Shown in pieces: positions 11,732 to 31,568 of a stretch of DNA of 64,000 nt. Location of the stretch: the NCBI GenBank assembly GCA_020060565.1, contig JAGVAE010000002.1, positions 85,036 through 149,035 on the forward strand. The letters run 5' to 3'. Under the pieces are notes generated by a model. The model was not told the origin of the DNA. It worked only from the letters and a program-made list of their open reading frames with translations, and did not search any database. The position numbers and the translations under genes are program-made. The stretch comes from Candidatus Woesebacteria bacterium (GTDB lineage: Bacteria; Patescibacteriota; Microgenomatia; UBA8517). The first letter of the stretch is position 1; each line of letters opens with the position of its first letter.

Positions 11732-12415
11732 TCATTTCTTCTTGACTTGGGGCACCAAGTCATTAATTATCCTTACTACACGATCGGGTTTGGGAACTGC
11801 CAAGAAATCAAACTCAGAAACCTCGGATGCAGTTTGAATAAAAACATTTCCATAATTAAAAACTGTTCTAACAACCCCACCCATGCTGTAAGTAACATCT
11901 TGAATATTATCGAGTGTTGCGTCTGAAACTCTTTTATATATCAAATTATTAAAATCTACGTCTACCACTCTTTCGTTTGTAACAATATAAACATTGAAGT
12001 ACCAATTAAGAAAGTTCTCTAGAGCATAAGCCATTGTAAATAAGTACCAGGCCATTGTAATAACCAATTCAAAACCGTTTGGGATTGTATCAAAAACTCC
12101 AAAAGCCTTGGCAACTGACGGAACAAAAAACATGACAATCGCAATTAAAACCCATTTAACATTCACTATTACATGTTGTCTCAAAAGAAGAACAATTTTT
12201 TCATCATTTGAGCGTGATTCGAAATCAACATTGTTGGGATAATAACTAAATGTAGAAAGCGCTTGATGATTATGGCTTTCAAAAGAGTCCTTTTCTTCCT
12301 TATTCACCGAAATATTCTTTTTGGAATTTGAAACAAATACATCAGGCATTTCAAACTTATTATACCAGGTCGAATCAAAAATTGTGCTATTTTTTCTCGA
12401 TATTGAAGAAGGCAA
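11732..12415 (-). CDS. Bacterial PH-domain (YdbS/YdbT-like, DUF304) membrane protein.
   Basis: Two adjacent TM helices (WVLIAIVMFFVPSVAKAFGVF / ELVITMAWYLFTMAYAL) followed by a soluble beta-rich domain, as in bPH_2 proteins. Confidence 0.45.
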   Translation of the reverse strand: MPSSISRKNSTIFDSTWYNKFEMPDVFVSNSKKNISVNKEEKDSFESHNHQALSTFSYYPNNVDFESRSNDEKIVLLLRQHVIVNVKWVLIAIVMFFVPSVAKAFGVFDTIPNGFELVITMAWYLFTMAYALENFLNWYFNVYIVTNERVVDVDFNNLIYKRVSDATLDNIQDVTYSMGGVVRTVFNYGNVFIQTASEVSEFDFLAVPKPDRVVRIINDLVPQVKKK

Positions 12416-14147: not shown

Positions 14148-14540
14148 ATGAAGAAGTTTATATTTAGTATTATTTTTGTTTCTGCATTTATATTTTTGAA
14201 TACTTTGATTTCGCCAAAGGTCTCTATGGCTGCTGATGTTCATGGGGGCTGTGGAGATACAGAGATTGATACAGCCATTGGCTGTGTTCCTGTATTGGGT
14301 GATGGAACAAGTGATTTTATGACTTTTATTCTTAGGTGGGCAATTGGTGTTGGGGGTGGAATTGCTTTTCTTTTGATTCTTTATGCAGGTTTTATGACAA
14401 TGACTTCAGCAGGTAATCCAGAAAGACTTAAGGCGGGGCAAGAATTATTAACAAGTGCCATCTCTGGTCTGATTCTTTTGATATTGTCCGTATTTGTTCT
14501 AAACTTTATAGGAATCAATATTTTAGGTATATTTACATAA
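14148..14540 (+). CDS. VirB2/TrbC-like propilin candidate, paralog 1; the only one with a classical signal peptide.
   Basis: 130 aa. Signal peptide (…PKVSMA), a Cys pair, then TM1, loop TSAGNPERLKAGQELLTSAISG and TM2. Confidence 0.5.
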   Translation: MKKFIFSIIFVSAFIFLNTLISPKVSMAADVHGGCGDTEIDTAIGCVPVLGDGTSDFMTFILRWAIGVGGGIAFLLILYAGFMTMTSAGNPERLKAGQELLTSAISGLILLILSVFVLNFIGINILGIFT

Positions 14541-14873
14541 ATGAAAATAGCATTAGAGAGTCCTTATAAAGGTATTAGCGTTCCTTCAAGTGGTGGAAAA
14601 ATAAATGTAAACGAAACTGATATTGGAGGTATTATTACTGGAGTTTTGCCATATATCTTTGGTGCAGCTGCAATTTTACTTTTAATTTATTTAGTTACAG
14701 CAGGTCTTTCCATGATGCTTTCTCGGGGAGAACCAAAAACAATGCAGGCAGCACAAGCAAAAATAACCAATGCTTTGATCGGATTTGTTATTGTATTTTT
14801 TGCGTTTTCTTTAGTACTTCTTGTTGGAAATATTCTTGGAGTTAATGTTTTTGAAGACATATTTAAAAAATAA
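14541..14873 (+). CDS. VirB2/TrbC-like propilin candidate, paralog 2.
   Basis: 110 aa. ~40-aa leader, then TM1, loop SRGEPKTMQAAQAKITNALIG and TM2. Abuts paralog 1 (TAAATG). Confidence 0.5.
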   Translation: MKIALESPYKGISVPSSGGKINVNETDIGGIITGVLPYIFGAAAILLLIYLVTAGLSMMLSRGEPKTMQAAQAKITNALIGFVIVFFAFSLVLLVGNILGVNVFEDIFKK

Positions 14874-15193
14874 TGAAAAATCTTGCATTAAATATTAAGG
14901 ATTCTTTTTTTGGTAATCAGGGAGCGTCTTCTTTTCAAACAATTACTGGGGTTTCTGATATTGTTTCTTTATTTCTCAAAATTTCTTTTGTCCTGGCAGG
15001 TTTAATTCTTCTTTTCTATTTTATCTTGGGTGGAATTGGAATGATTGGGAGTGCTGGAAAAAATGATCCAAAAGCGGCTGAACAGGCCAAGCAAACCATA
15101 ACATCGGCTGTTATTGGGTTTGTTGTTGTGTTTGTAGCCTATTGGATAGTAAAATTGATTGGAATATTGTTTAATATTCCAAATATTATTTAA
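14873..15193 (+). CDS. VirB2/TrbC-like propilin candidate, paralog 3.
   Basis: 106 aa. Loop SAGKNDPKAAEQAKQTITSAVIG between two TM helices. ATGA overlap with paralog 2. Confidence 0.5.
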   Translation: MKNLALNIKDSFFGNQGASSFQTITGVSDIVSLFLKISFVLAGLILLFYFILGGIGMIGSAGKNDPKAAEQAKQTITSAVIGFVVVFVAYWIVKLIGILFNIPNII

Positions 15194-15547
15194 ATGCAAA
15201 AACTACTCGCAGATAATGTCTTTGGCACAATTAAAGCACCAGATTCTGCATTTAAGGACAGTGCTACTCCCCAAGCAGCCATTGGAAACTTAATTCAGCT
15301 TGTAATCTGGATTCTTATAATTGGCGCTGGGATCTATGCATTGTTTAATTTGGTTTTGGCTGGCTATTCTTTTATGTCAGCAGGAGATGATAGTAAAAAA
15401 GTTAGTGGAGCCTGGGCTATGATTTATCAAACAATGATCGGCTTGGCTGTTGCTGCAGGATCCTTTGTGCTGGCAGCCATCTTTGGACAGTTGATATTTG
15501 GCAAATGGGATTTTATCCTTAACCCAACAATTCCAACATTACAATAA
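15194..15547 (+). CDS. VirB2/TrbC-like propilin candidate, paralog 4.
   Basis: 117 aa. Loop SAGDDSKKVSGAWAMIYQTMIG between two TM helices. Confidence 0.45.
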   Translation: MQKLLADNVFGTIKAPDSAFKDSATPQAAIGNLIQLVIWILIIGAGIYALFNLVLAGYSFMSAGDDSKKVSGAWAMIYQTMIGLAVAAGSFVLAAIFGQLIFGKWDFILNPTIPTLQ

Positions 15548-15548
15548 A

Positions 15549-15923
15549 ATGAATAATTTACTGACAGATATTAAATTGGCACCAGAGAGTGGTTTTAGGG
15601 GTTTTGGTCAGTTGGGACTTGAAGGTTTAAGTGAAGAAAGTGCGGGTACGACATTCAACACCTTTGTTTCAACTGCCATAGGTGTAATGACCATCATTGC
15701 TTTTGTGTGGTTTGTTTTTACACTTTTTGTTGGGGCTTACGGATTTATGACTGCAGGAGGGGATAAACAGGCTCTCGAGTCTGCAAAGAAAAAAATAACT
15801 ACAGGAATAATAGGTGTCGTTATTGTAATTGCCGCCATTTTCATATTCCAACTTGTGGGGTATATACTTGGAATACCAAATATTCTTAATCCTGGGGAAA
15901 TGATTAGACAAATCAGTCAATAA
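15549..15923 (+). CDS. VirB2/TrbC-like propilin candidate, paralog 5.
   Basis: Start at MNNLLTDIK, 1 nt after the stop of paralog 4. Loop TAGGDKQALESAKKKITTGIIG. Confidence 0.5.
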   Translation: MNNLLTDIKLAPESGFRGFGQLGLEGLSEESAGTTFNTFVSTAIGVMTIIAFVWFVFTLFVGAYGFMTAGGDKQALESAKKKITTGIIGVVIVIAAIFIFQLVGYILGIPNILNPGEMIRQISQ

Positions 15924-15924
15924 T

Positions 15925-16326
15925 ATGTTTATTACAAACCTTCTATTAGCACAGGGCGATATCCCTGAGGGGTGGAATGGCCCAGCAAAAGGATCTGAAA
16001 TAAAAAACCCCGCTTTAGGAAACACCTTAAACGGACTTCTTCAAGAGGGTGGTTCCGCGTTTTTTGGAACCCTAATACCAAATCTTATTGGAATCTGTTA
16101 TGTAATTGGGGTAGTTATCTTTCTTTTTATGCTTATTACAGGTGCTATTCAATGGATAAGCTCCGGTGGAGACAAACAAGCATTAGAGTCAGCAAGGAAT
16201 AAAATATCAAATGCTTTGGTAGGAATTGTAATTTTGTTTGCTGTGTTTGCAATTATAAATCTAATTGAAACGTTTTTTGGTATAAATATTATGACCCTTG
16301 ACATGGGGGCTTTAGTAATTCAATAA
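15925..16326 (+). CDS. VirB2/TrbC-like propilin candidate, paralog 6.
   Basis: 133 aa. Loop SSGGDKQALESARNKISNALVG between two TM helices. Confidence 0.5.
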   Translation: MFITNLLLAQGDIPEGWNGPAKGSEIKNPALGNTLNGLLQEGGSAFFGTLIPNLIGICYVIGVVIFLFMLITGAIQWISSGGDKQALESARNKISNALVGIVILFAVFAIINLIETFFGINIMTLDMGALVIQ

Positions 16327-16336
16327 TATAAATGTA

Positions 16337-16675
16337 ATGAATAATTTGCTTGCGGAAACAATTAATTTAAAGCCACAATCAGGTGATTTTGTGGGAATAT
16401 CTAATTTTACACTCCCCTCAATTATTTCTGCTCTTATAAAAGGAGCTATGGTTATTGCTGCTATTATCTTCTTCTTTATGTTGGTTATTGGAGGAATTAA
16501 ATGGATTGCTTCAGGTGGTGACAAAGCTCAAACAGAAGCAGCCAGGAATCAAATTACTGCAGCTCTTGTGGGTTTGGTAATAGTCTTTGCTGCTTGGGCA
16601 ATAGTTTCTCTTATAGCCACATTCTTTGGAGGGGTTAATATCTTTAATCTTACAATTCCTGAAATTGGTAATTAG
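16337..16675 (+). CDS. VirB2/TrbC-like propilin candidate, paralog 7.
   Basis: 112 aa. MNNLLAETI leader. Loop ASGGDKAQTEAARNQITAALVG. Confidence 0.5.
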   Translation: MNNLLAETINLKPQSGDFVGISNFTLPSIISALIKGAMVIAAIIFFFMLVIGGIKWIASGGDKAQTEAARNQITAALVGLVIVFAAWAIVSLIATFFGGVNIFNLTIPEIGN

Positions 16676-16722: not shown

Positions 16723-17007
16723 ATGGGTGATGGTCCTGCTAGGATTTCTGATTTGCAATTAGTTTTTGGGAATGTTGTCAAGATTGCCTTGGCGGCCGCA
16801 GGTGTGGTTCTTTTTGTTTTACTTATTATTGGAGGATTAAAATATATTACTTCAGGTGGGGATCCCAAAGCAGCCGAGAGTGCGCAAAAAACAATTACTT
16901 ATGCTATTGGAGGACTTCTTCTTATACTTGCTTCATTTCTAATCCTGGAGCTAATTAGGACAATTACAGGAGTAGATGTCACCAATTTTATTGTTACCCA
17001 ACCGTAA
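16723..17007 (+). CDS. VirB2/TrbC-like propilin candidate, paralog 8; shortest, minimal leader.
   Basis: 94 aa. Loop TSGGDPKAAESAQKTITYAIGG between two TM helices. Confidence 0.45.
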   Translation: MGDGPARISDLQLVFGNVVKIALAAAGVVLFVLLIIGGLKYITSGGDPKAAESAQKTITYAIGGLLLILASFLILELIRTITGVDVTNFIVTQP

Positions 17008-17011
17008 TTTA

Positions 17012-19545: not shown

Positions 19546-21150
19546 ATGTCTATCCTGCTCAAAAAAGTTCTGTTATCTTTTCTTTCCTTTTTTGTATTAT
19601 TCTTTTCTGTTGCTCCAAATTTTGCAATTGCCAAGGCCCAATCTACAACTTGGTACAATCAAGACTTCAAAACCTGGTTTGGAAAAGTATCGGACGAAGG
19701 TAACCCGCAAGAGATTTTTGGAGAACGCTATACATCTGCTCAAGTTGAATGGGTCATATATGGGGTATTTGCCTTCTTTATAAATCACGTTACTCCTCCA
19801 GGAACCGCAGGTACTTGTATTAATGGTGATATCACGGGTTGTATCGGTGCAATTAGTGCTTATTTCAGTTCAATATCCTATGAAGATAAAACGAACGAGA
19901 GCCTCGCACAACTTGTTTTTGCAGATCGCCCCCTTTCAGGAATTTCATATGTCAAACATACTATACAGAAATTTGGTTCAGTGCCTACTGCTCATGCACA
20001 AAGCCCTGGTTTTGGCTTCTCGGCACTTTCTGGTCCTATTCAGGATATGTGGAATGGTTTTAGAAATATAGCTTTTGGATTGTTTGTTCTTGCAACTGTT
20101 GCTTTTGCTTTTATGATTATGTTTCGAGTTAAAATTTCTCCACAAGTTGTTATTACTGTTCAATCTGCAATTCCAAAAATTGTTATTTCATTGATCCTCG
20201 TTACTTTTTCCTATGCAATCGCAGGTTTTTTAATTGATCTTATGTACTTGGTTATTGGTTTTATCAGTTTGATCATGGCCCCATTAATACCAAATGTATT
20301 ACTGTTAAATTCAGTCAATTACAATGCCACAGATTTATTTAAACTTCTAACGGTAGGCCAGACAATTGGGATTGGAACTGGTGGTTTCAATGGAATTTTA
20401 CTTCTTTTAGGAATGTATCTTACTCCTTTATTTTTAATCCTTCTCGTTTTCGCTGCACTTTTTCTTGCTATTGCATTTATACCAGGTGCTCAAGTGTTCG
20501 GGGTCGTATTAATGTTATTAACTCTAATTATTATGTTGGTTATTGTTGTATTGGCAATGTGGATGTCTATTAAAATAATGTGGGCACTTTTCAAAGCCTT
20601 TGCAAACATCGTCCTTCTTACCATCTTTGCTCCAATACAGCTTGTTGCGGGGGTAATTGTGCCCAATTTTGGCTTTGGTCAGTGGGTAAGAAGTTATTTA
20701 TCACACCTTGCGGTTTTTGTAGTAACGGGTGTTTTGTGGCTACTTTCTTACATTTTTATGTTGCATGCTTGGGCAGGTATTGGCGATGGCTCCTCTTTAA
20801 CCCTTGCTGGCTCAAACGTAAGTCCCTGGCCACCCCTTCTGAATGTTGGTGGTGGAACATTCTTTATTTTTACTGGGGTTAGTTTTGTGCTTTTTACAAT
20901 GATTCCAAAAGCAACCGAACTAGTACAATCACTTCTTGCAGGTAAGCCATTTGCGTACGGAAGTGCAATTGGTGAAGCCTTTGGACCAGTCACAAAAGGT
21001 GTGGGAATAGGAACTGGGTTTGGAGCAACTTACTTGTCAGAGTTGGGTGAAAGTCAGTTAAGATCAGGTAGCGAAGCAGTAAGAAAACAAGGTAAAAGTA
21101 ATTTAACGAAAGGTTCTGCCTTAAAAGTTATGCAGGGGTTTTTTAGATAA
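19546..21150 (+). CDS. VirB6/TrbL-like polytopic membrane protein (PrgH/TcpH-like).
   Basis: Signal peptide, a ~190-aa extracytoplasmic domain, at least 6 TM helices and a Gly-rich C-terminal tail. The topology and its position in the locus fit the VirB6 family. Confidence 0.45.
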   Translation: MSILLKKVLLSFLSFFVLFFSVAPNFAIAKAQSTTWYNQDFKTWFGKVSDEGNPQEIFGERYTSAQVEWVIYGVFAFFINHVTPPGTAGTCINGDITGCIGAISAYFSSISYEDKTNESLAQLVFADRPLSGISYVKHTIQKFGSVPTAHAQSPGFGFSALSGPIQDMWNGFRNIAFGLFVLATVAFAFMIMFRVKISPQVVITVQSAIPKIVISLILVTFSYAIAGFLIDLMYLVIGFISLIMAPLIPNVLLLNSVNYNATDLFKLLTVGQTIGIGTGGFNGILLLLGMYLTPLFLILLVFAALFLAIAFIPGAQVFGVVLMLLTLIIMLVIVVLAMWMSIKIMWALFKAFANIVLLTIFAPIQLVAGVIVPNFGFGQWVRSYLSHLAVFVVTGVLWLLSYIFMLHAWAGIGDGSSLTLAGSNVSPWPPLLNVGGGTFFIFTGVSFVLFTMIPKATELVQSLLAGKPFAYGSAIGEAFGPVTKGVGIGTGFGATYLSELGESQLRSGSEAVRKQGKSNLTKGSALKVMQGFFR

Positions 21151-21166: not shown

Positions 21167-23269
21167 TTAATCTGTAGAATTTACAGCCATTCGAATAAAA
21201 GCACCTATCTGATTATTTAATAAGGCTTTTTCTTCTTCTGTCTCAGATTTGGCAAAGTTAATACTTTTTGATGTATCAAGAATTTTCTTATCAAGATATC
21301 CCACACTCGCCGCCGTTTCAATTATTGCTTGTCGTTCTGTAGAAATTGTAGCCTGAACCGCTGACAAAAAAGCAATCGCCTTCCATTTGTTTTTTTCTTT
21401 TTTAACATATTTCTTTAATAAAGCATCTTCGGCTTCAATTCTCAGTTGATCATTGGGTAACTTGTTACCACCTGTCTGCATCTTGTCCATCAAAGTGTCT
21501 ATTTCAGTCAAATGATCACTAAACCACTTTTCATATTTCCCTTCTGTTATTATCCAATCTCTGCAAACTATATGGATTGATTTTTCAACCCCTTCCCAAT
21601 ACACAGGATCAAGACCATTTTCTCTATTTTTTCCCTTGGTTAATTCACCATTCATTGCCAAGTAGGCTCCCGTATCTTCCCTTAAGGAAAACAGTGCTCT
21701 TATTAAATAAGCTCTATATCCCCAATCTGCCGTATGGTCCTCATCTTTAAATATCTCCCCTAAAGTTTTACCTTCAACAAACAATTCCATTGCTGAACGT
21801 GTTTTACTCTTTGATTCGGGAAAGTTTCTGTCCCTAACGGGAACCGTTCTTAAAAAATCGACCATTATATGCTCTGGTGCAAAATTGGCCCAAGCAAAAG
21901 GACCTTCATAATACGAGTTCTGTCTGTTGTAGACAGTATTATCGCGAGGCCTTGTTAAATCGGTCATTGCATCCGACCATGGATAGTCTTCAGCATTTAC
22001 CTGAATCGCTCTATCACCATCCGTTTTTGTAGCTCTTGTACCATACATCGCAGCCAATCCAAAAAACCTAAATGTTTTTTCTGCAAAATTTACAGCAATT
22101 TGTGACTGCATTTTCATTGATGAATGGTTTTTAAATTTTCCCTCACTCATCAGGTCTTGAACCGCTTCAAGTGTGGCCTTAACACTTCCTCCATTGCTCG
22201 AATCTGCAAACTTATTAAATGCGGGAATCGAATCTAAAACCGCCTTATCTTCAGCAGTTAAACTTTCGTATGATTTACCATATAAATAAGCTGCCTTGTT
22301 GTATTCATTGGGAAGGGTTTTTAATTTTAATTTATATAACCACTCATTCTCCGTTGTTTCATTTACAAAAAGTTTTTTAAACCCCTTTCCATTTCTAAAC
22401 CAATCTAAATCGGTTTTCCATCTGGGATCAGATTGTAATGCCAAATACGTAAAGGCCCTTATACCAATGTCCACTTGTTCAGAAACACTCTTCCATTCTC
22501 TATCACCTTCTATAAAACCAGGCATTTCTCCGTATACTCTTGCAAAAAATTCGGGAGGCATATATTCAGGTAACTCTCCGTAAACCAGCTGAAAAATTTT
22601 CCCTGAAGGAGCAAGTTTTTTATAGAAAGCAAACCATTGATCAAAAAGTTTATCAACATCTTGAATTATCGTTAATGACTGTTCTATCCCTTTTTGTTTT
22701 TCTACCTGTTCCTGGGTTTTTTTTGAACCCCCGCTCAGTTCATTTAAGGCATCGCTTCCACCAGCTGCTCTTAGTGCTATTGATTCTCTAAGAGATTTAG
22801 CTGGCCATTCGTCGTTATAATTTACAATTCTATCCATAATGAAATATGTCCAGTATTTTCTTTCCTGTTCCGTGGGGGCTTTAGTTATTTTTTCTACTAT
22901 TCCTTCACCAAACATTCCAGACATTATCTGGGCTAATATTTCGGGGTTCATCTTAAAGTCACCAGCATCAGGAGATAAATCGACGGGATTAGTAACAGCT
23001 TTTACCGAATCAGGGGCTCCTTCCATATGAGGACCAACTTGTCCCAAGTGGCGCATATAATCTATTGAAGAACCCTGAGGGCTTGGTTGTTCTGGCGATG
23101 TTGGTCCATCAGACATATTCAAATTGTAGCACGGAGTAGGGTAAAACAACAAACCGTCCCATAGCTTGACTTTGTGGCTAAGTGAGTATACACTCGCGGA
23201 CAAGATGGAATTTGACAAAATTAAAACCGCTGTTGCAAATTTTTTTGACCGGAATGAAAAATTAGCCAT
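21167..23269 (-). CDS. Large hypothetical protein (700 aa) encoded antisense within the secretion locus.
   Basis: Long uninterrupted ORF with no recognisable motif. The N-terminus could be a signal peptide, or the start could be later at MSDGPTSP (23116). Confidence 0.4.
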   Translation of the reverse strand: MANFSFRSKKFATAVLILSNSILSASVYSLSHKVKLWDGLLFYPTPCYNLNMSDGPTSPEQPSPQGSSIDYMRHLGQVGPHMEGAPDSVKAVTNPVDLSPDAGDFKMNPEILAQIMSGMFGEGIVEKITKAPTEQERKYWTYFIMDRIVNYNDEWPAKSLRESIALRAAGGSDALNELSGGSKKTQEQVEKQKGIEQSLTIIQDVDKLFDQWFAFYKKLAPSGKIFQLVYGELPEYMPPEFFARVYGEMPGFIEGDREWKSVSEQVDIGIRAFTYLALQSDPRWKTDLDWFRNGKGFKKLFVNETTENEWLYKLKLKTLPNEYNKAAYLYGKSYESLTAEDKAVLDSIPAFNKFADSSNGGSVKATLEAVQDLMSEGKFKNHSSMKMQSQIAVNFAEKTFRFFGLAAMYGTRATKTDGDRAIQVNAEDYPWSDAMTDLTRPRDNTVYNRQNSYYEGPFAWANFAPEHIMVDFLRTVPVRDRNFPESKSKTRSAMELFVEGKTLGEIFKDEDHTADWGYRAYLIRALFSLREDTGAYLAMNGELTKGKNRENGLDPVYWEGVEKSIHIVCRDWIITEGKYEKWFSDHLTEIDTLMDKMQTGGNKLPNDQLRIEAEDALLKKYVKKEKNKWKAIAFLSAVQATISTERQAIIETAASVGYLDKKILDTSKSINFAKSETEEEKALLNNQIGAFIRMAVNSTD

Positions 23270-23885
23270 ACAACAAAGGATGGTGGATCAGACTTTTCAA
23301 AAAAGCCGTTCGAGTGAAGAAAAGCTAGAACTAGATCAATGTCTATACGCAGAGAAAAACATTCCGATTATAAAAGCGAGACTTGACGAGCTTATTAAAA
23401 ATATCAACACTTCTGTTTTCGACAATAAGGGCTCTGTAATACCATGGAAAGTAACTATTGGTAAAAGCCCTCGTTCACATAATGAGGGAGGGAACTCTAT
23501 ATATGAATATGGGGAAGGATACGGTATTGTTGGTGGCCACGATGTTTTTGATGGTTGGTTTCTCACCAGAGAGCAGGACACTGAACTCAAAGTTGGCAGC
23601 CTATTCCAATTACAAATCAAGTTAATTTTTCCACTTACCGAAACAAACACTGCAGGTCAAATTAATAGACACTCCAATAAATATTTTTCCATTTTTGGTT
23701 TTATGTCTGGAGATTTGTTCCACAATCACGAAAGCGGAACTTTTTACAGGAGCTATAGCAGCCTTTCAATTCATAGAAATTTCTACTTAGATAATCCAAA
23801 CGAACTCGTAGCGGAATTTGGTAACAAATTAAAAGAGGAATTGTTAGGACTTAACGATTTTCAGAACCATTCTCCAAAAAATTAA
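23205..23885 (+). CDS. Hypothetical protein.
   Basis: ORF 23166..23885 with internal start MEFDKIK. Would overlap the 5' end of the divergent 700-aa ORF unless that gene starts later. Confidence 0.25.
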   Translation: MEFDKIKTAVANFFDRNEKLAIQQRMVDQTFQKSRSSEEKLELDQCLYAEKNIPIIKARLDELIKNINTSVFDNKGSVIPWKVTIGKSPRSHNEGGNSIYEYGEGYGIVGGHDVFDGWFLTREQDTELKVGSLFQLQIKLIFPLTETNTAGQINRHSNKYFSIFGFMSGDLFHNHESGTFYRSYSSLSIHRNFYLDNPNELVAEFGNKLKEELLGLNDFQNHSPKN

Positions 23886-24341
23886 CAAGAAATGAAGGGT
23901 TTGTACTTGTGAAAAGGGGTGTCCATTGCAATAAAACAGTAAGCTATTTGAATATATCTTTCCCCAATTCTTTGGCTTGATCAAGAAAAAAATCTTCCAT
24001 CTTTTTTCTATCCTGTTAAACGGATAATAATTAAAATCCACTTTTAGCTCCCCATCTGGAAAAAATAATGTATACGTATGAAGCCCTAAAAATTGGCGGT
24101 GAATAATTTTCTTAACGAACATTTTACTACCAACAATACCAATAAACTTGTTTATGCTAGGTAAATGAATTTCTTGGTTTTCTGAAAACAGATCAATATC
24201 GTGAGACTCTCTATGTTTTAAGTAAAATTCTGAAAGAACGGTTCCACCTGTCAAATAAAACCGTTTTAATAAATAGGGTTCTTTTAGGACAAATTCGAGA
24301 AATTCTTGCTGATGCTTATCGAGGATGGTTTTGTTCCCCAT
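23844..24341 (-). pseudogene. AbiEii/DUF1814-like nucleotidyltransferase, probably truncated or frameshifted.
   Basis: The N-terminus KRFYLTGGTVLSEFYLKHRESHDIDLF matches the AbiEii GGTAL…R.SxDIDf motif. Reading continues in another frame (MEDFFLDQAKELGKDIFK*) across an A7 homopolymer near 23990, and the total length is far below the family norm. Confidence 0.35.
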
Positions 24342-24633
24342 ATTAGGTATTCAAAATATTCTTTGGTCTTTTCGTCAATTTTCTTATTTATATATTTCCA
24401 GGAATTTTTAACCTCTGAGAGGGAAATTTTCTCTCCATCTAAACCGTAATTTATCATTTGTGTTAGTCTCCAGAGTTTATATTCCTTGGGACTATTTTTC
24501 TTAAATTTTACCTCATCGGTGGACCAATTAATCATGACTAATTATATCATTTTTGCTGTGAAAAGGGATTCTTATTGCACAAGTTGCTTCACGTTGTAAT
24601 CTTAACCTAGAGTAGACAACTTCTACTGCCCAT

Positions 24634-25674
24634 ATGGAACAACACGCAATACCACAAAACGTAAGTTCATATCAATTTAAGTTGGTTGGGGATATGACTC
24701 TTAAGCAGTTTTTTCAACTTGCTGGAGGAATTTTAGTTGGAGTAATTTTTTATTCTGCTCCCTTACTTGGAATTATTAAATGGCCTTTGGCAATTCTTTC
24801 TGTTCTTTTAGGGGTTGGGCTTGCTTTTCTCCCTCTTGAGGAGCGTCCCTTGGAAAAGTGGATTTTTGCTTTTTTTCGTGCAATATATGCTCCCACCCTT
24901 TTTAATTGGAAAAAGGCTTTATCTCCTCCTAAATTTTTTCAGGATGAACCAGCGGGTTCCACTCCCGAACAAGATGCTGCTCTTAAGGGTTATCTGACAA
25001 CAACCAATCAAGCCTCTGGTGCTTCTGCAAATTTGGATAAAGCTGAAATTGGTTTTTTTTCAAAGCTTGCTGGACTTTTAACAGGAACTATCAGTGTTAT
25101 TCCTTCTGCCAAACCTGCTACTCCAACTGAGGCTACTTCTCAAAAGCCAGTTGAGTTGAAAGTACCAGAAAATGCTCCAGTTAGAATTCAAACAGGTGCA
25201 TCACATTTAGTGGTTGAGGAAAAACCAAAGATTGCTACTGTCCAAAACCAAGTCACTGTTAATGCTGTTGCCCCAATTGTAGCGGGAGATGAAATGATTT
25301 CTACAAAACAGGCAATTTTTTCAGTTGATGCAGCCCCACCCAATCCCCCAACTATACCCAATGTGGTTGTGGGACAAGTGGTTGATCAAGACAGAAAAAT
25401 TATTGAGGGGGCAATAATGGAAATACGAGACTCAATGGGAAGACCAATAAGAGCCTTAAGGAGTAATCGTGTGGGACATTTTCTTACAGTCACACAGCTT
25501 GATAATGGACACTACGAAATAATTACAGATAAAGATGGTTATGAGTTTGTTGCGGTTTCTTTTGATGCAAATGGTGCCTTGATTCCTCCAATTTTAGTTC
25601 AAGGAAAAAGATTGGGACCAGTGGTTGAGGATATTCCCGTTGGAATTGTTAAACCAGCCTATTCAATAAATTAA
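24634..25674 (+). CDS. PrgI/VirB3-like membrane protein with a long C-terminal extension.
   Basis: The N-terminus IPQNVSSYQFKLVGDMTLKQFFQLAGGILVGVIFY plus two TM helices matches the PrgI-family pattern, and the gene sits directly upstream of VirB4. Confidence 0.45.
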   Translation: MEQHAIPQNVSSYQFKLVGDMTLKQFFQLAGGILVGVIFYSAPLLGIIKWPLAILSVLLGVGLAFLPLEERPLEKWIFAFFRAIYAPTLFNWKKALSPPKFFQDEPAGSTPEQDAALKGYLTTTNQASGASANLDKAEIGFFSKLAGLLTGTISVIPSAKPATPTEATSQKPVELKVPENAPVRIQTGASHLVVEEKPKIATVQNQVTVNAVAPIVAGDEMISTKQAIFSVDAAPPNPPTIPNVVVGQVVDQDRKIIEGAIMEIRDSMGRPIRALRSNRVGHFLTVTQLDNGHYEIITDKDGYEFVAVSFDANGALIPPILVQGKRLGPVVEDIPVGIVKPAYSIN

Positions 25675-25675
25675 A

Positions 25676-26392
25676 ATGAAACCAAAACTTAACAGTTTAA
25701 ATATTCCCAAGATTCCGTATTTAAGTGTTCCTGACAAACCTATTGTTTCAACCTCTCAGAACCACTTACCAATTGCGGATGTTACCAATGATGTTGTTCT
25801 TTATAAAGATGGTGGGGCTGCTCTTGTTATGGAATCTACATCACTAAACTTTGGCCTTTTAAGTGAAAAGGAGCAAGGAGCCGTCATTGCGGCCTATGCT
25901 GCAATGATTAATTCTCTTTCTTTTTCGATACAAATATTAGTTCGAACTCAAAGGAAAGATATAAGTTCATACATAAGTTATATTGATGAACAAGCTAAAA
26001 AACTAACACATCCCCTTCTTCAAAAATTAATGGCTGAGTATAAAGGATTTATCTTAGATTCTGTTAAAAAGAAAAACGTTTTAGGAAAAAGATTTTTTGT
26101 AATTCTCTATCTTTCCCCACTTGAACTTGGAGTTGGAAAATCATTGGCCGTTGTCACAAAACGAGGAGTTACACTTCCTTTTTCCAAATCCTATGTTATT
26201 AAAAAAACAAAAATAACACTTTATCCAAGACGGGATCATCTTATAAGACAAGCTGGCAGACTTGGAATTAAATTTAGACAACTTACCACCAACGAGCTTA
26301 TTGATCTTTTCTATACCGTCTATAATCCTGAACATCCAGCAGTTAAAAAAGAACCTGAAGTAATATTAGAAAGGAGAGAGTCCAGTGGATAA
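25676..26392 (+). CDS. VirB4/TrbE N-terminal domain encoded as a separate ORF.
   Basis: IADVTNDVVLYKDGGAALVMESTSLNFGLLSEKEQGAVIAAYAAMINSLSFSIQILVRTQRKD…YISYI and RFFVILYLSP follow the CagE_TrbE_VirB N-terminal consensus. The stop overlaps the next ORF by 8 nt. Confidence 0.55.
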   Translation: MKPKLNSLNIPKIPYLSVPDKPIVSTSQNHLPIADVTNDVVLYKDGGAALVMESTSLNFGLLSEKEQGAVIAAYAAMINSLSFSIQILVRTQRKDISSYISYIDEQAKKLTHPLLQKLMAEYKGFILDSVKKKNVLGKRFFVILYLSPLELGVGKSLAVVTKRGVTLPFSKSYVIKKTKITLYPRRDHLIRQAGRLGIKFRQLTTNELIDLFYTVYNPEHPAVKKEPEVILERRESSG

Positions 26393-28229
26393 CAATACAA
26401 AACCAATAGTCCAAGCACCAACCCAGCCATCTAGCCATCCAACCATTCAACCTTCACCTCAGTCTGAGGTAAAACCCAAGATTGTAAGTCCTGTGGCGGC
26501 TGTTGATGGGGGAGCTAGTGTAATTGATGTCATAGCTCCCCAAGCGATTGAGCAAGATTTTGATTATTTTAAAATTAATGATGTTTATTTCAGAACCATC
26601 TTTGTAGGGGGCTATCCAAGGTTTGTTGCTCCTGGTTGGTTGGAACCCGTTGTTAATTTTGACTCCTCCTTGGATATTTCTTTCTATGTTTATCCAGTTG
26701 ATGGAAAAACAGTACTTGATGATCTAAGACACAAGATTGCAGAGATGGAGGCGGAAATCTCAACAGACATAGAACGTGGAAGAATAGTGGATCCTTCCAC
26801 CCAAGCCAAGCTTGAAGATGCAAGGAGCCTTCAGGAACAACTAGTTAAAGGAATTGAAAGATTTTATGAGTTTAGTTTCTATATAACCATTCCCGCCAAC
26901 AATCTTGAGGAATTAAACCATGTTACAAAACAAATTGAATCTCAACTTGGATCTCTTTTAATTGTCAGTAAGCATGCACTTCTTGATCAGGAGTCGGGTT
27001 TTCTTTCAACTGCTCCTTTTGGAATGGATAGGTTAAATATTACAAGAAACATGGATACGACTTCTGTTGCTACAACTTTTCCTCTAACTTCAACCGAACT
27101 TTCCAGTGACCGCGGTGTTCTTTACGGAATAAACTCTCAAAATGAGTCTTTTATTATTTTTGATAGATTTTCTTTGGAGAATGCCAACATGACAATTTTT
27201 GCCACCTCTGGTGCAGGTAAATCTTATTTTGTAAAACTGGAGGCAGTTCGCTCCCTCATGATTGGAACTGAGGTAATAATAATTGATCCTGAAAGTGAAT
27301 ATAAACCATTAACACAAGCAGTTGGGGGCGAATATATTTCATTTTCTTTCAACTCTCCTGCCAAAATCAATCCTTTTGATTTGGCACAAATTAGAGAAGA
27401 AGGAGAAAACCAATTGGGTCAAAAGATTCTTTCCCTTCACTCTCTCATGAAAGTTATCATGGGTGCAATCACTCCCACCCAAGAAGCCCTTCTTGATCGC
27501 GCCCTTATCATGACCTATCGCAATAAAGGAATAACAATGGACCCAGATACACAGTCCAAAGAACCCCCACTAATGGAAGATCTTTATAAAACCCTAATTG
27601 GTATGGAGGTTCCTGATGCTTTAGACCTTGCTGCTCGGCTTGAGAAATTTGTAAGAGGGTCATTTGTGGGAATATTTGATAAACAAACAAATATAAATAT
27701 TAACAATCCTTTTACTGTTTTTTCTATTAAAGATTTACAGGACGCACTACGTCCCATCGCCATGTTTACAATTCTTGATTACATTTGGACAAGGGTTAAA
27801 AAAGACCTCAAGAAACGCATCTTAATCGCCGAAGAGGCCTGGCAAATGATGAAGTACCCCGATACCTCAGCCTTTTTGTGGAGTGTTGTTAAAAGGGCAC
27901 GTAAATATTATTTGGGCTTAACTACAATTACTCAGGATGTTGAAGACTTTTTAAGCCAGGATATTGGAAAAGCCATTGTTACAAATAGTTCCATGCAAGT
28001 ACTTCTTAAACAATCTCCTGCTGCAATTGATAAGATTGCGGAAGTTTTTTATTTGAGTCAGGGGGAAAAACAATTATTACTTGCTGCAAATGTTGGAGAG
28101 GGAATTTTCTTTGCAGGACCACACCATGCTCCAATTAGAGTTATTGCTAGTGAGGATGAAAATAAATTGATCACAACCAAACCACAAGAAATGATGATGA
28201 TAAATCCAAATGCATATGAGGCAAAATAA
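26385..28229 (+). CDS. VirB4/TraC-family T4SS ATPase (C-terminal ATPase part), GTG start.
   Basis: Walker A FATSGAGKSYFVK and Walker B RILIAEEAWQMM. The middle region DYFKINDVYFRTIFVGGYPRFVAPGWL is typical of VirB4. Confidence 0.8.
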   Translation: MDNNTKPIVQAPTQPSSHPTIQPSPQSEVKPKIVSPVAAVDGGASVIDVIAPQAIEQDFDYFKINDVYFRTIFVGGYPRFVAPGWLEPVVNFDSSLDISFYVYPVDGKTVLDDLRHKIAEMEAEISTDIERGRIVDPSTQAKLEDARSLQEQLVKGIERFYEFSFYITIPANNLEELNHVTKQIESQLGSLLIVSKHALLDQESGFLSTAPFGMDRLNITRNMDTTSVATTFPLTSTELSSDRGVLYGINSQNESFIIFDRFSLENANMTIFATSGAGKSYFVKLEAVRSLMIGTEVIIIDPESEYKPLTQAVGGEYISFSFNSPAKINPFDLAQIREEGENQLGQKILSLHSLMKVIMGAITPTQEALLDRALIMTYRNKGITMDPDTQSKEPPLMEDLYKTLIGMEVPDALDLAARLEKFVRGSFVGIFDKQTNININNPFTVFSIKDLQDALRPIAMFTILDYIWTRVKKDLKKRILIAEEAWQMMKYPDTSAFLWSVVKRARKYYLGLTTITQDVEDFLSQDIGKAIVTNSSMQVLLKQSPAAIDKIAEVFYLSQGEKQLLLAANVGEGIFFAGPHHAPIRVIASEDENKLITTKPQEMMMINPNAYEAK

Positions 28230-28231
28230 GT

Positions 28232-30973
28232 ATGGTAAAATATTATTCCCCACCAGAAACTCTTGAAACAGACCGTGACTCTTTAGAAAGCCTAATTAAA
28301 TCAACTGAATACGCTTTTAAGGGAGATTTGTTTGGTGGGAGCGAAACCAACCTTTCTCTTTCTCAACCTTTTACCTCTCCCGACGGTAAGTATCGCTGGC
28401 AAAGTGTAAAAGATTTCTTTATTTATATTACAGACTTAACAAAAACTGGAAACATTAAAGTGGCAAACGCTGTTCTTTACGACAATCTTGCCAAAGCGCC
28501 AAAATATGTTGAATTTAAAGGAGCTGAAAAATCCCCTGTTGACCAAACACTTCCACAAAAAGGAATTCTTGAACAGTTTGAAAAGGAGATGGAGACAAAA
28601 GAGGCCGGAAGGAAAAAGGTTGTTGAAGAATCTGATAGACAAGTCCGAGCAGCAATAGAAAAACAAAAAGAAGTATATAAAGCAACTATTCAGGAACAAA
28701 TAAAACAAGCAAAAGAGGCTGAAGTCAATCTTAAAGGTAAAAAGATATATGTAAAAGTTGAAGATCCTGATATTGAACAAGTACCTGAAGTTAAAAGCTT
28801 AAAAGAACAGGCAGAGGTAGATCCTAAAAAATTTATTGAGGATGCATCAAAAGAATTTGGTAAAAACCCAAACATTAAAGATTTATCTATTGATGAACAA
28901 ATGGCTGCAGCAAAACAAGCTTCTCTTACAAGCTACGAGGTATTGACTAACAATTCTCCACTCGTCCAAGCAGCTGTTATTAACAAAGTTGCCTCAGACC
29001 CTAATACTAAAAATTATTTAGAGAATGCCGCAGCCTCTCTAGTCAATCAAAAAATGTCCCAACTTGAGCTAAGTAAGGTGTTTTTTGATTCATCAAAAAT
29101 AGATGGACACAAAAATATCAACGATATCAATGTCGAGATTTCCTATACCCCAAAGCCTGGATTTAAAGAATACGACTTAAACGAACAGATAATTAGACCC
29201 CACCTTGAAAACTTGAACCATCAAAATCTTTTAGTTGACACTTTTAAAGATTTTAGTGAAGGGGAAATAAAATCGCGTATTTTACTAGGAATTGGTGGTC
29301 GAATAGAAGCTCATGTTGCAAAACTTCCTGCGGGGAGTCTAGTTGCCAAAGCATATAGGTCAGACGTGGTTCAACTAGGAATGTCTTCCATGGGTTTTGT
29401 TAGAGCTGTTCCTGTTGCTGCGGTTGAAGGATCTATTGTGGGAGAAGTTATTACCGCTTCTGGGTTAGGGAACGCTGCTTTGGTTGTTCAAGCTAAAACA
29501 GGTATAAATTTAGGTGTTAAGTTGGCTGCCAAAACTAGTGCAGAAACTGCAGTTAAGGTTGGTGTTGAAACCACTGTCAAAGCAGGCGTTTCAACTGCAG
29601 CAAAAACAGGGTTTAAAGGACTACTAGCAAAAATTGGAACTTCTCTTTTTGGAACAGCTGCTGGCGGACCGATAGGATTCATCGCTACTTGGATTGGCAC
29701 AGATGTTTTATTAAAACTTGTCGAAAAAATCCCTTGGGGAAAAATTAAAAAGTTTGGTGTAGCAATTGCCTCTTTTATTGTGGGCGTCCCAATGCTTGCA
29801 ATAGGACTTACAATGGCCAACGCTCCTTTGACACTTGGCGGTTTTGGTTTAACAGCTTTTGGTGCTGCTTCTGCAAAAGGACTTACATTAGCTGGAACTG
29901 TTGGTGGAGCATTTAAATTGTTTGGTGTGATTGGAACAGCAACCCTGGGAGCAATCGGGGGACCCATACTTTCTTTTTTGATTGGTTTTCCATTAGTTGT
30001 TGCCTTGATTTTGTTTATAATAAATTCTGGAGCCTATGTTGTTCCTGAATCCTCTTTGTCTTATTCAAAGGGACAAGATAATCCATATTTGTCTGTAACG
30101 AAAGAGGCAAACCCCGGAAAAATAAGTAATCCTTCAGGAAACCAACCTGTCTCATTTACTGTTTCAGTTACTGCCACCAAAACTACACTTACCAACGTAA
30201 AAATTGAATCTACATCTTGTAATGTAATCAAAAAAGATGGGTCGAATGTTGGGTGTCCTTTAGAGAATATTCAAGAATTACCTGCAGATTTAAAACTTTC
30301 GCCAGGAAACCCTTATGTTTTTGATTTTTCTGTGGATTTTGGATCAAACCTTTCAGATTCGTTAGTTTTTGATTCCATTAAGATTAGTGCAGACTCAGAC
30401 GAACAAAAAGGTATTACAACTTCGGGGTCAGAAACCGTCTGTGTGGGAGAGTGTCCAGTTGATTGTGTTAAAGTTGAAGACAACGCAATGCCCTGGCCAG
30501 GAAATCTGCGAGCAAATCTTGAAGCCGCCGTTGCCTCTCTTTCTGGAGGTCACCCTGGCTTTATAGCAAAAGTGTGTAGTAACAATAAAGAAGTAAACCT
30601 TTGTTATAATCCCCCACAAATAAGTGAGGGGTATTTTGCGTGGCATATACATACTGATAGCTGTGATGTTGTTTTTAATCAAAAAGGTCTACAAAGTGAA
30701 AAGGATGCTCTTTTCTTGGTAACTCACGAATTAACACACCATATCCAAAAAATAGTTGGTGGTAGTGTTCAGGAATATTTAGATTCAGGGGGTTTTAGGG
30801 AATTGGCAGGGGAGGGTTTTTGTACTTACAAAGACACTGCTAATGATGTTTACGAGTCCATGGCTGAAGCCTTAGGTCTTTATGCATCAATTCCTTCATG
30901 GGGAGGGTGTGCAGCCAACTACAGAACCAAGTATCCAAGAAATTATGTTTTTGCAGAAGGTTTTATGAAGTAA
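28232..30973 (+). CDS. Large protein with an N-terminal charged/coiled-coil region, a central Gly/Ala-rich membrane region and a C-terminal HExxH zincin-like domain.
   Basis: 913 aa. Glycine-zipper-like hydrophobic block from about residue 380 to 600. Near the C-terminus, LVTHELTHHIQK carries the HExxH motif, within a Cys-containing region (CVGECPVDC…). Confidence 0.45.
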   Translation: MVKYYSPPETLETDRDSLESLIKSTEYAFKGDLFGGSETNLSLSQPFTSPDGKYRWQSVKDFFIYITDLTKTGNIKVANAVLYDNLAKAPKYVEFKGAEKSPVDQTLPQKGILEQFEKEMETKEAGRKKVVEESDRQVRAAIEKQKEVYKATIQEQIKQAKEAEVNLKGKKIYVKVEDPDIEQVPEVKSLKEQAEVDPKKFIEDASKEFGKNPNIKDLSIDEQMAAAKQASLTSYEVLTNNSPLVQAAVINKVASDPNTKNYLENAAASLVNQKMSQLELSKVFFDSSKIDGHKNINDINVEISYTPKPGFKEYDLNEQIIRPHLENLNHQNLLVDTFKDFSEGEIKSRILLGIGGRIEAHVAKLPAGSLVAKAYRSDVVQLGMSSMGFVRAVPVAAVEGSIVGEVITASGLGNAALVVQAKTGINLGVKLAAKTSAETAVKVGVETTVKAGVSTAAKTGFKGLLAKIGTSLFGTAAGGPIGFIATWIGTDVLLKLVEKIPWGKIKKFGVAIASFIVGVPMLAIGLTMANAPLTLGGFGLTAFGAASAKGLTLAGTVGGAFKLFGVIGTATLGAIGGPILSFLIGFPLVVALILFIINSGAYVVPESSLSYSKGQDNPYLSVTKEANPGKISNPSGNQPVSFTVSVTATKTTLTNVKIESTSCNVIKKDGSNVGCPLENIQELPADLKLSPGNPYVFDFSVDFGSNLSDSLVFDSIKISADSDEQKGITTSGSETVCVGECPVDCVKVEDNAMPWPGNLRANLEAAVASLSGGHPGFIAKVCSNNKEVNLCYNPPQISEGYFAWHIHTDSCDVVFNQKGLQSEKDALFLVTHELTHHIQKIVGGSVQEYLDSGGFRELAGEGFCTYKDTANDVYESMAEALGLYASIPSWGGCAANYRTKYPRNYVFAEGFMK

Positions 30974-30983
30974 AATAAAATAT

Positions 30984-31568
30984 ATGGGAAAAGTTTTTAA
31001 TTTTATTAAAAAATATTGGGTTCTAATTTTGATAGCACTAATGCTTGTGTTGGTTATTATTGATAAATTTATTATTCCTGATAAAAAAGTCTCCCAAACT
31101 GTTTCAACCCCAAAATCAAACAGGGTTGCTGATTACAAATCAATTCAGCCTGGAAAAAGTAAGCTAGAAGAAATTAATAGTCTTTTAGGTTATCCAATTG
31201 AACAGAGTGAAAAGGATGGAAACATAATTGCCGAATACAGATCTTCAAGTAATTATAGAAATAATCTTGTGACTGTACAAAATGGAGTAGCTACTTTGAT
31301 TAAAGAAATTGTTACCGCAACCGACAATAAAAAATCTCAAGACATAATACAAGAATATGGCGAAGCTCCTTTTGTTCTCTATGACCAAAAACCTAGTTCA
31401 ACTTTCAATTTGTATGTTTATCCCACAAACGGAATCGCCTATCTTGGACATGAAGATGGAACCTTACTTGAAGTCTGGTATTTCCAACCAATTGATATTG
31501 ATTCGTTCATTTCAACCTGGGCAAAAGATTATTCTAAAGAAAAAACAACTGAGACCTTAAAATATTAG
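30984..31568 (+). CDS. Bitopic membrane protein; could be a VirB8-like component (speculative).
   Basis: N-terminal TM anchor (WVLILIALMLVLVII) plus a ~165-aa extracytoplasmic domain. It is the last gene of the locus. Confidence 0.3.
   Translation: MGKVFNFIKKYWVLILIALMLVLVIIDKFIIPDKKVSQTVSTPKSNRVADYKSIQPGKSKLEEINSLLGYPIEQSEKDGNIIAEYRSSSNYRNNLVTVQNGVATLIKEIVTATDNKKSQDIIQEYGEAPFVLYDQKPSSTFNLYVYPTNGIAYLGHEDGTLLEVWYFQPIDIDSFISTWAKDYSKEKTTETLKY

Follow-up and report, generated by a model that had tools for sequence, protein, structure and literature searches.

What is encoded by the large gene that directly follows virB4 in the origin-proximal type IV secretion system (T4SS) of Candidatus Woesebacteria? 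The T4SS is the only machinery of Patescibacteria for which an essential role in epibiotic growth has been shown, and in Saccharibacteria peptidase and lysozyme genes located just 3′ of virB4 are essential too (PMC10633639). Patescibacterial T4SSs resemble the MPF_FATA type and are often found beside dnaA and dnaN; homologues of VirB6 are "scarce" among Microgenomatia, and linkage of VirB1 homologues to virB4 is rare (PMC12102498). Surveys found no VirB1-type hydrolase near virB4 in most classes. We analyzed a window of 64,000 nucleotides (nt) from a Candidatus Woesebacteria genome (GenBank assembly GCA_020060565.1, contig JAGVAE010000002.1, positions 85,036–149,035, forward strand), in which an open reading frame (ORF) of 913 amino acids (aa) lies 3′ of virB4 and lacks Pfam domains. 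The results make it probable that the 913-aa protein is the wall-hydrolase subunit of a chromosomal T4SS of the Gram-positive type (MPF_FATA-like) in Microgenomatia/Woesebacteria, corresponding to VirB1, PrgK, TraG, and CwlT, and we assign the gene to this role. In the following paragraphs, we summarize the evidence for this assignment and the alternatives to it; coordinates of all features are collected in Table 1.

The ORF was confirmed from its ATG to its stop codon. A preliminary description of the locus, made from the sequence alone, had reported that the gene directly follows VirB4 and had quoted several peptides of its product. The start codon is indeed positioned 2 nt past the stop of the VirB4-like ATPase gene, with GAGG ~12 nt upstream of it, and every motif that had been quoted is found in the product (GGPIGFIATWIG, residue 478; LTLGGFGLTAFGAASAKGLTLAGTVGGAF, residue 533; VTHELTHH, residue 830). 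The gene is part of a same-strand operon with the order PrgI(VirB3)–TrsD–VirB4–913-aa gene–194-aa ORF, in which neighboring genes overlap or are separated by 2–10 nt, and directly past which the convergent dnaN and dnaA genes are located. A scan of GTDB species representatives retrieved 49 related loci, and those with informative titles come from metagenome-assembled genomes (MAGs) of ~0.8–1 Mb assigned to Candidatus Woesebacteria, Microgenomates, or Patescibacteria. In 47–49 of these loci, the orthologue is surrounded by PrgI, TrsD, VirB4, and dnaN in an unchanged order. Operon order and the dnaN/dnaA setting agree with the published picture of Patescibacteria T4SSs (PMC12102498), and the operon context bears out the T4SS membership of the protein that had been proposed.

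The function of the protein was not apparent from its own domain matches. Neither the full-length sequence nor any third of it had a significant match in Pfam, NCBIfam, or PADLOC (the best match was eCIS_core, E=0.15), and a search for tandem repeats within the gene found nothing relevant. By Pfam, the protein contains none of the recognized peptidoglycan hydrolase domains (SLT/lysozyme, CHAP, NlpC/P60, and M23), whereas its orthologues do. This became evident from the 12 nearest homologues, which have the first ~750 residues in common and then end in one of three ways: seven with an HExxH domain, four with Peptidase_M23, and one with Amidase_2. A second, word-indexed homologue search (31-sequence alignment) returned the same 12 proteins only. 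Among the C-termini of 48 orthologues (47 from GTDB loci and the window protein), Pfam identified Peptidase_M23 in 26, CHAP in four, Amidase_2 in three, and M15_4 and NlpC/P60 in one each, and eight carry the HExxH domain. The exchange of these C-terminal domains, hereafter called heads, can be seen in pairwise comparisons. When an HExxH protein (P0006) and an M23 protein (P0007) were compared in a sliding window, identity was 60–80% up to residue ~450 and 33–50% in a beta-sandwich region, but fell to ~10% past residue 751. In the first ~600 aa, the HExxH protein P0005 is 64% identical to the M23 protein P0007 and 66% identical to P0006, which also has an HExxH head. A pair with different heads is thus nearly as similar as a pair with the same head, which indicates that head exchanges are recent. 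The named alternative heads are peptidoglycan peptidases or amidases. Since the HExxH head shares its slot with peptidoglycan enzymes, it is probably a peptidoglycan-directed peptidase as well, and by analogy with these slot-mates its probable activity, on the outer side of the membrane, is cleavage of peptidoglycan at amide or peptide bonds.

The HExxH head itself (residues 746–913) is predicted to be a zinc peptidase. AlphaFold2 modeled this domain with confidence (predicted local distance difference test, pLDDT, 79.3 and predicted template modeling score, pTM, 0.83 for the domain alone; pLDDT >90 in the full-length model), and the order of its elements—a helix, a small beta-sheet, the HExxH helix, and a helix with the glutamates—is typical of zincins. 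The HExxH motif falls within modeled helix 823–841, and Y866 and E875/E879 are located on or just before modeled helix 873–885. In the set of close homologues, the invariant residues are H832, E833, H836, C864, Y866, E875, M877, and E879. At E≤1e-3, a profile of the last ~177 aa matched 275 of 1.84 billion cluster representatives. Nearly all matches are located at the C-terminus of proteins of 600–1100 aa, and the short ones are fragments of the same architecture. The HExxH motif is kept in 148 of the 150 best relatives, most of which also have E-x-[MF]-x-E 38–44 residues past the first histidine. Neither of the two outcomes that the preliminary description had named as refuting its HExxH domain, lack of conservation of the motif and a non-peptidase fold, was observed: the predicted fold is that of a zincin, with the motif intact. 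The cysteines among which the motif had been described are present too, and all ten cysteines of the protein lie within residues 663–893, with none in residues 1–605.

Structurally, the head resembles PPEP-1, PPEP-2, PPEP-3, and anthrax lethal factor (M34-like in MEROPS, ATLF-like), which likewise carry HExxH on the active-site helix and act outside the cytoplasm, as is predicted for the head. Its closest folds are PPEP-2, PPEP-3, and lethal factor. As in M34 enzymes, a conserved tyrosine follows the first histidine after ~34–37 residues and a glutamate after ~43. The spacing of H832, E833, H836, Y866, and E875 is almost that of H153, E154, H157, Y190, and E197 of PPEP-3, the metal-binding and catalytic residues of this enzyme, where E196 is adjacent (PMC12828418). 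Unlike the PPEPs and lethal factor, to which its sequence identity is 13–14%, the head contains conserved cysteines and has no sequence match in Pfam or the Protein Data Bank (PDB). A profile of the C-terminal domain (A3) had no match among PDB sequences at E≤10, the full-family profile (A5) had no meaningful one, and Foldseek comparison of the C-terminal model with viral structures gave no match at E≤1e-3. The lack of a curated family or a PDB sequence match argues for a new family that has the gluzincin fold of M34-like enzymes, and not for a member of M34. Judged by sequence, the domain appears to be an undescribed family of ~275 clusters at 50% identity that is confined to this architecture; a literature search found no paper describing it.

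The similarity to M34 enzymes raises the alternative that the HExxH head cuts a surface protein, such as a pilin precursor, an adhesin, an S-layer protein, or a surface protein of the host, instead of peptidoglycan. All three closest folds are protein endopeptidases, and potential substrates are encoded in the same locus, which contains a pilin array of six genes and the gene of a secreted, Cys-rich protein of 841 aa. No peptidoglycan hydrolase is known to use this zincin fold family. However, the identity to PPEP is only 14%, and the slot that the head occupies is filled in orthologues by M23, CHAP, Amidase_2, and M15_4, all of which are peptidoglycan enzymes. Furthermore, loci with other heads keep PrgI–TrsD–VirB4, so that a head processing the machinery would have to be dispensable in most lineages. 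The PPEPs are free secreted proteins that cleave Pro–Pro bonds in adhesins, whereas the zincin head is tethered to a T4SS membrane protein in a slot shared with peptidoglycan hydrolases. We therefore regard a protein substrate as distinctly unlikely.

The remainder of the protein would serve to hold this head in place. The preliminary description had divided the protein into a coiled-coil N-terminus of ~350 aa, a glycine-zipper membrane block, and the HExxH domain. This tripartite layout is real, except that a fourth part, an Ig-like (immunoglobulin-like) beta-sandwich (residues 620–738), precedes the HExxH domain. Four orthologues match DUF7507 in this region, and Foldseek relates the sandwich to Spo0M/arrestin-like, CARDB, ApaG, and TRAP-beta structures, all weakly and none at E≤1e-3. 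With the full-length model as the query against the PDB, Foldseek gave only weak beta-sandwich and M1-peptidase matches. The N-terminus is highly charged as described (30.9% D/E/K/R in residues 1–350), but AlphaFold2 models residues ~1–390 as a confident helical fold that includes a 58-residue helix (110–167), that is, as a folded domain and not as a plain coiled coil. No relatives of this domain were found by Pfam, by PDB sequence profile, or by Foldseek, for which the query was the whole multi-domain model.

The membrane block that follows differs in composition from the N-terminus (31% Gly+Ala and 11% charged residues in residues 351–605). Its first section, residues 391–560, consists of a variable low-complexity part, a conserved Lys-rich EKIPWxKIKK motif (~495–507), and charge-free segments at 468–494 and 508–549. 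Averaged over the family, hydropathy reveals three charge-free stretches (~468–494, 508–549, and 557–606), the first two of which are separated by the Lys-rich motif. AlphaFold2 leaves residues 433–573 at pLDDT 25–45, almost without secondary structure, and helix 561–598 is the sole confident hydrophobic helix of the region. This helix leads into a FIINSGAY-VVPP motif that is invariant in alignments A1 and A4, and among full-length HExxH-type relatives 124 of 127 have the upstream transmembrane (TM) helix together with IINxxAYVVPP. In the topology that we prefer, both the N-terminus and the Lys-rich loop are inside, residues 508–606 cross the membrane three times, and the C-terminus is outside. 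It fits the positive-inside rule, the lack of a signal peptide, the confinement of cysteines to the last 250 residues, and the kinds of enzyme found as slot-mates. Specifically, an extracytoplasmic head is suggested by the position of all ten cysteines past the last TM helix and by the action of the slot-mates on peptidoglycan.

The preliminary description had read the same block as a pore or channel component with added hydrolase activity. In this alternative, the block would be a translocation pore fused to the hydrolase, either a VirB6 that has diverged strongly or a channel of the glycine-zipper type, which would explain the scarcity of VirB6 in Microgenomatia. Several observations are in line with it: published profile searches found few VirB6 homologues in this class (PMC12102498), the gene directly follows VirB4, ~100 nearly charge-free residues (508–606) and the conserved motifs KTGINLG, EKIPWxKIKK, and FIINSGAY are present, and low AlphaFold2 confidence could reflect an obligate oligomer. 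As in VirB6, TrbL, and PrgH, a hydrophobic membrane segment is encoded by a gene of the T4SS operon. Unlike these proteins, however, the block shows no profile similarity to the family and has far fewer clear TM helices. No Pfam signal for TrbL, VirB6, or PrgH was obtained with the 913-aa protein even at E≤10, and only three hydrophobic stretches are conserved in the family, although PrgH itself matches TrbL in Pfam. The region contains 31 small-xxx-small motifs, compared with 28.4 ± 3.4 in 2000 composition-preserving shuffles, and six GxxxG motifs compared with 5.8. The apparent zipper is thus a consequence of composition, and a glycine-zipper pore former was rejected, as motif periodicity does not exceed that of composition-matched shuffles. 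Much of the block is low-complexity sequence of variable length, the model contains no packed membrane bundle, and PrgK-type hydrolases likewise have long non-catalytic N-terminal parts. Finally, a separate, conserved 534-aa polytopic protein is encoded where VirB6 lies in a related Firmicute locus, which weakens a channel role of the Gly/Ala block. A pore function of the block is therefore very improbable, and we regard this part as a membrane anchor.

With this layout, the protein can be compared with known T4SS hydrolases. On pCF10, the gene order is prgH(VirB6)–prgI(VirB3)–prgJ(VirB4)–prgK–prgL, in which prgK encodes 871 aa and prgL 208 aa. PrgK consists of a Lys-rich N-terminal part of ~245 aa and one TM helix, followed by LytM (M23-like), lysozyme, and CHAP domains. 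Its N-terminal domain is intracellular, the TM helix spans residues 254–274, and the hydrolase domains are extracellular; the protein is essential for conjugation and binds PrgL (PMC11323569, PMC12857230). A Pontibacillus plasmid, which scored best when plasmids were matched to the TrsD-like protein (E=9e-18), has a comparable arrangement: a pilin, VirB6(TrbL), PrgI, TrsD, and VirB4 are followed by a 1050-aa NlpC/P60+M23 protein. Like PrgK, TraG of pIP501, and CwlT of ICEBs1, the ~900-aa protein is encoded between VirB4 and a small bitopic protein. Its predicted layout is also that of PrgK, in that a charged N-terminus would lie in the cytoplasm, a membrane segment would anchor the protein, and the hydrolase would face outward, and its orthologues carry M23 or CHAP domains, as does PrgK. 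Thus, the view of the preliminary description that the combination has no obvious named equivalent does not stand, given that the order matches prgI–prgJ–prgK–prgL, the layout matches PrgK, and orthologues have M23, CHAP, Amidase_2, and M15 heads. By analogy, we consider the 913-aa protein a positional and architectural counterpart of the VirB1-like PrgK/TraG hydrolases. It is unlike PrgK in that a long Gly/Ala-rich membrane block replaces the one helix and a single head, preceded by an Ig-like domain, replaces the array of hydrolase domains. It differs from PrgK, TraG, and CwlT alike in that the head is of a zincin type with no earlier link to T4SS hydrolases and is swapped together with the next gene.

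Several points weigh against the assignment as a wall hydrolase. Profile comparison detected no homology to PrgK (hhalign probability 0.2% with A1) or to the Pontibacillus M23 protein (0.2% with A5), and no known peptidoglycan hydrolase or peptidase profile in Pfam-A or NCBIfam matches the zincin domain (eCIS_core, E=0.15). The nearest structural relatives, the PPEPs and lethal factor, cleave proteins and not peptidoglycan. Regarding topology, AlphaFold2 leaves residues 433–573 without a model, and counting just the two strongest hydrophobic peaks would place the C-terminus inside the cell.

The gene downstream of the 913-aa gene provides a further line of evidence. In tblastn searches, the 194-aa ORF matched exactly the seven GTDB loci that have an HExxH head and none of the other types. 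When the first downstream ORFs of all loci were clustered, the clusters corresponded nearly one-to-one to head types. The partners of HExxH heads (187–197 aa) form one cluster that covers all eight loci, and those of classic M23 heads (322–356 aa) form a second, with 17 of its 18 members called M23 by a motif rule. A third cluster contains the partners (148–161 aa) of an M23 variant that ends in PEDYFC, and the partners of Amidase_2, of two CHAP types, and of two further types (204–389 aa) have clusters of their own. The pairing was confirmed independently on three metagenome contigs (L052, L056, and L057) outside the clustered GTDB loci; for the partner-family members of L056 and L057, the upstream gene has FIINSGAY and HExxH…ExxxE. 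Similarly, the ORF after the HExxH protein P0006 belongs to the HExxH-partner cluster (192 aa) and the one after the M23 protein P0009 to the M23-partner cluster (342 aa), while the ORF after the M23 protein P0007 has a length of ≥270 aa. Head and partner gene therefore behave as one exchangeable cassette that is swapped as a unit.

All partners but one have a strongly hydrophobic N-terminal segment. In profile–profile comparisons, the HExxH partner resembles the other partners over its first ~45 residues, the anchor, only, and the ectodomains are otherwise unrelated. The HExxH-partner family comprises 133 clusters, all of ~170–200 aa and without fusions. Its ectodomain contains two alpha–beta repeats with the motif G-x-S/T-x-x-x-V-x-x-x-x-G-x-P and has weak matches to BamE and DUF4309, which serve as a lead only; the partner profile (A6) had no meaningful match among PDB sequences. 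When VirB8 and PrgL were considered as identities of the partner, hhalign gave probabilities of ≤6% for every cluster (0.3% for the HExxH type), and the repeat pattern does not resemble NTF2. The partner could be an inhibitor or regulator that restrains a hydrolase that is dangerous in so small a cell (cf. PrgK, which is self-regulated), it could be a docking partner like PrgL, or it could be an immunity protein in the toxin–immunity sense. Most likely, it binds the head and restrains or positions it.

The co-variation of head and partner is also the basis for a different explanation, in which the protein is a polymorphic weapon. Here, a T4SS-tethered or released effector with an interchangeable head would attack the wall of the bacterium that carries the cell belonging to the candidate phyla radiation (CPR), and the partner would be the immunity protein for the wall of the producer. 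The conserved N-terminus, the variable C-terminal enzyme, and the strict co-variation of the next gene with enzyme type fit this reading and are shared with polymorphic toxins such as CdiA-CT/CdiI, LXG proteins, Tae/Tai of type VI secretion systems, and X-Tfe/X-Tfi of Xanthomonas. Xanthomonadales possess bacteria-killing T4SSs with pairs of peptidoglycan-hydrolase effectors and immunity proteins. Further points in favor are the fast evolution of the protein (25–41% identity) beside a highly conserved VirB4 and the membrane anchor and ectodomain of the partner, which place it where the enzyme acts. Moreover, the T4SS is essential for epibiotic growth of Patescibacteria (PMC10633639) and lacks a relaxase and a coupling protein (PMC12102498). 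Unlike polymorphic toxins, however, the enzyme is apparently permanently anchored, its partner is anchored in the membrane as well, and each locus contains exactly one copy, located in a core operon beside oriC and not in a typical toxin island. The conserved TM helix holds the enzyme to the membrane of the producer, and no cleavage or release site was identified. With an external part of only ~300 aa, the head should not reach past the producer's own wall, as has been argued for PrgK (PMC11323569). Orphan enzyme or immunity modules were not seen, because dnaN directly follows. Taken together, these points make a weapon rather unlikely.

A related possibility, to which we also assign a low probability, is that the cassette consists of a polymorphic head and a cognate membrane-anchored inhibitor or immunity protein and is shuffled because the head is matched to the wall chemistry of the target, that is, of the host. 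At least five head chemistries occur in the slot (the new zincin, two M23 types, CHAP, Amidase_2, and M15). If this were true, the breached wall would be that of the host bacterium and the partner would protect the producer. The cassette would then be the first toxin–immunity-like module built into a T4SS core and would offer a direct molecular handle on the host range of CPR bacteria.

Under the wall-hydrolase assignment that we favor, the parts of the protein can be arranged into a simple mechanism. The N-terminal domain (~1–390) would stay in the cytoplasm and probably dock to the VirB4/PrgI platform, and the Gly/Ala-rich block, which ends in the TM helix with FIINSGAY, would anchor the protein beside the channel. 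The beta-sandwich (620–738) may act as a spacer that extends the zincin head into the wall. Displayed outside, the disulfide-containing gluzincin head (746–913, with H832, E833, H836, Y866, and E875/E879 as predicted key residues) would cut peptide bonds of peptidoglycan locally, in the stem peptide or the cross-bridge, such that the channel or pilus can cross the wall. The co-anchored partner would bind the head and limit or direct its activity. A membrane-anchored wall hydrolase associated with a T4SS is already known as a type of component; new are the zincin catalytic family, the unusual membrane block and N-terminal domain, and the exchange of head and partner as a cassette. The assignment predicts that the substrate is peptide bonds of peptidoglycan, that the partner binds its cognate head, and that head type tracks the chemistry of the wall. 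Its adoption would also allow hundreds of CPR genomes to be annotated better.

Table 1. Features of the T4SS locus, with positions in the window and the observations on which each entry is based.
Feature	Position	Strand	Basis
913-aa T4SS-associated membrane-anchored hydrolase (predicted)	28232..30973	+	ORF; 12 close homologues; orthologues in 49 GTDB loci, each directly 3′ of VirB4
Charged helical N-terminal domain, conserved, predicted cytoplasmic (residues 1–390)	28232..29401	+	AlphaFold2 pLDDT mostly >90; 30.9% charged; no N-terminal hydrophobic segment
Gly/Ala/Thr/Val-rich, partly hydrophobic block (residues 391–560)	29402..29911	+	Composition; family-averaged hydropathy; AlphaFold2 pLDDT 25–45
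Last TM helix, ending in invariant FIINSGAY-VVPP, predicted exit to the outside (residues 561–606)	29912..30049	+	Strongest hydrophobic peak; AlphaFold2 helix 561–598
Ig-like beta-sandwich with conserved Cys663/Cys675 (residues 620–738)	30089..30445	+	AlphaFold2 strands with pLDDT >90
M34-like gluzincin metallopeptidase domain, undescribed family, predicted (residues 746–913)	30467..30970	+	
H832-E833-L-T-H836 (HExxH), predicted zinc-binding and catalytic	30725..30739	+	Invariant in A3; present in 148/150 relatives
Y866 … E875-S-M-A-E879, candidate oxyanion Tyr and candidate third zinc ligand	30827..30868	+	Invariant in A3
194-aa bitopic partner, N-terminal TM segment and ~150-aa ectodomain	30984..31568	+	Homologues only 3′ of orthologues with the HExxH head (8/8 loci)
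VirB4-like ATPase, C-terminal P-loop part	26385..28229	+	NF045971 "CD1110 family" E=2.8e-111; PF19044 E=5.3e-29
TrsD/TraC-like protein, N-terminal part of split VirB4	25676..26392	+	NF041427 E=3.8e-6; PF26593 (TraC-like) in orthologous loci
PrgI (VirB3-like) membrane protein with C-terminal extension	24634..25674	+	PF12666 E=1.3e-6; conserved in 47 loci
534-aa polytopic membrane protein, which position alone makes a candidate VirB6 analogue	19546..21150	+	Signal peptide and multiple hydrophobic segments; homologues in 30/49 loci
Pilin array, six tandem small ORFs of 110–141 aa, five of them T4SS pilins (VirB2-like)	14148..16675	+	PF18895 E=1.3e-5 to 3.5e-11

The remaining genes of the locus complete the picture of the T4SS. 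VirB4 is encoded by two genes (25676–28229, +) that overlap by 8 nt, one for the TrsD/TraC-like protein of 238 aa and one for the ATPase of 614 aa, an arrangement common to all related loci and the Pontibacillus plasmid. The 534-aa protein is encoded 5′ of PrgI, in the same relative position as the TrbL/VirB6 protein of the Pontibacillus locus; on pCF10, too, VirB6 is a protein of its own encoded 5′ of VirB3. Neither Pfam nor hhalign linked it to TrbL or PrgH; its position makes it a candidate for the "missing" VirB6 of Microgenomatia. Between the 534-aa protein and PrgI, the locus is interrupted by a segment (21167–24535) that contains a 700-aa minus-strand ORF and smaller ORFs. A homologue of the 700-aa ORF, the only one searched, was found in no more than one related locus, and the segment looks like a lineage-specific insertion.

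The VirB2-like pilin array resembles those reported for Microgenomatia and Saccharimonadia. Between it and the 534-aa protein, the 841-aa protein (16976–19501, +) is encoded, which is secreted, has an N-terminal signal or anchor, is Cys-rich judging by its termini, and has homologues in 16 related loci. Such a protein might belong to the pilus tip or to an adhesin. On the other side, the array adjoins the gene of a 567-aa protein (12387–14090, −) that matches SpoIID (PF08486, E=9.5e-20) and also gives coiled-coil-like hits, and which could be a glycan-strand-cleaving enzyme acting together with the T4SS.

In the best-matching related loci, the VirB4 ATPase is 81–89% identical, compared with 61–66% for DnaN next door. 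The orthologues of the 913-aa protein are mostly 25–41% identical across loci and thus evolve fast beside the strongly conserved ATPase. One orthologue (L014:6059-12097) has 2012 aa, with ~1100 extra N-terminal residues, and may represent a fusion with an upstream gene or a read-through ORF call. Finally, many MAG records with loci of the Patescibacteria type (L002, L007, L010, L012, and others) are labeled "uncultured Gammaproteobacteria bacterium", which is probably a placeholder or mislabeled taxonomy.

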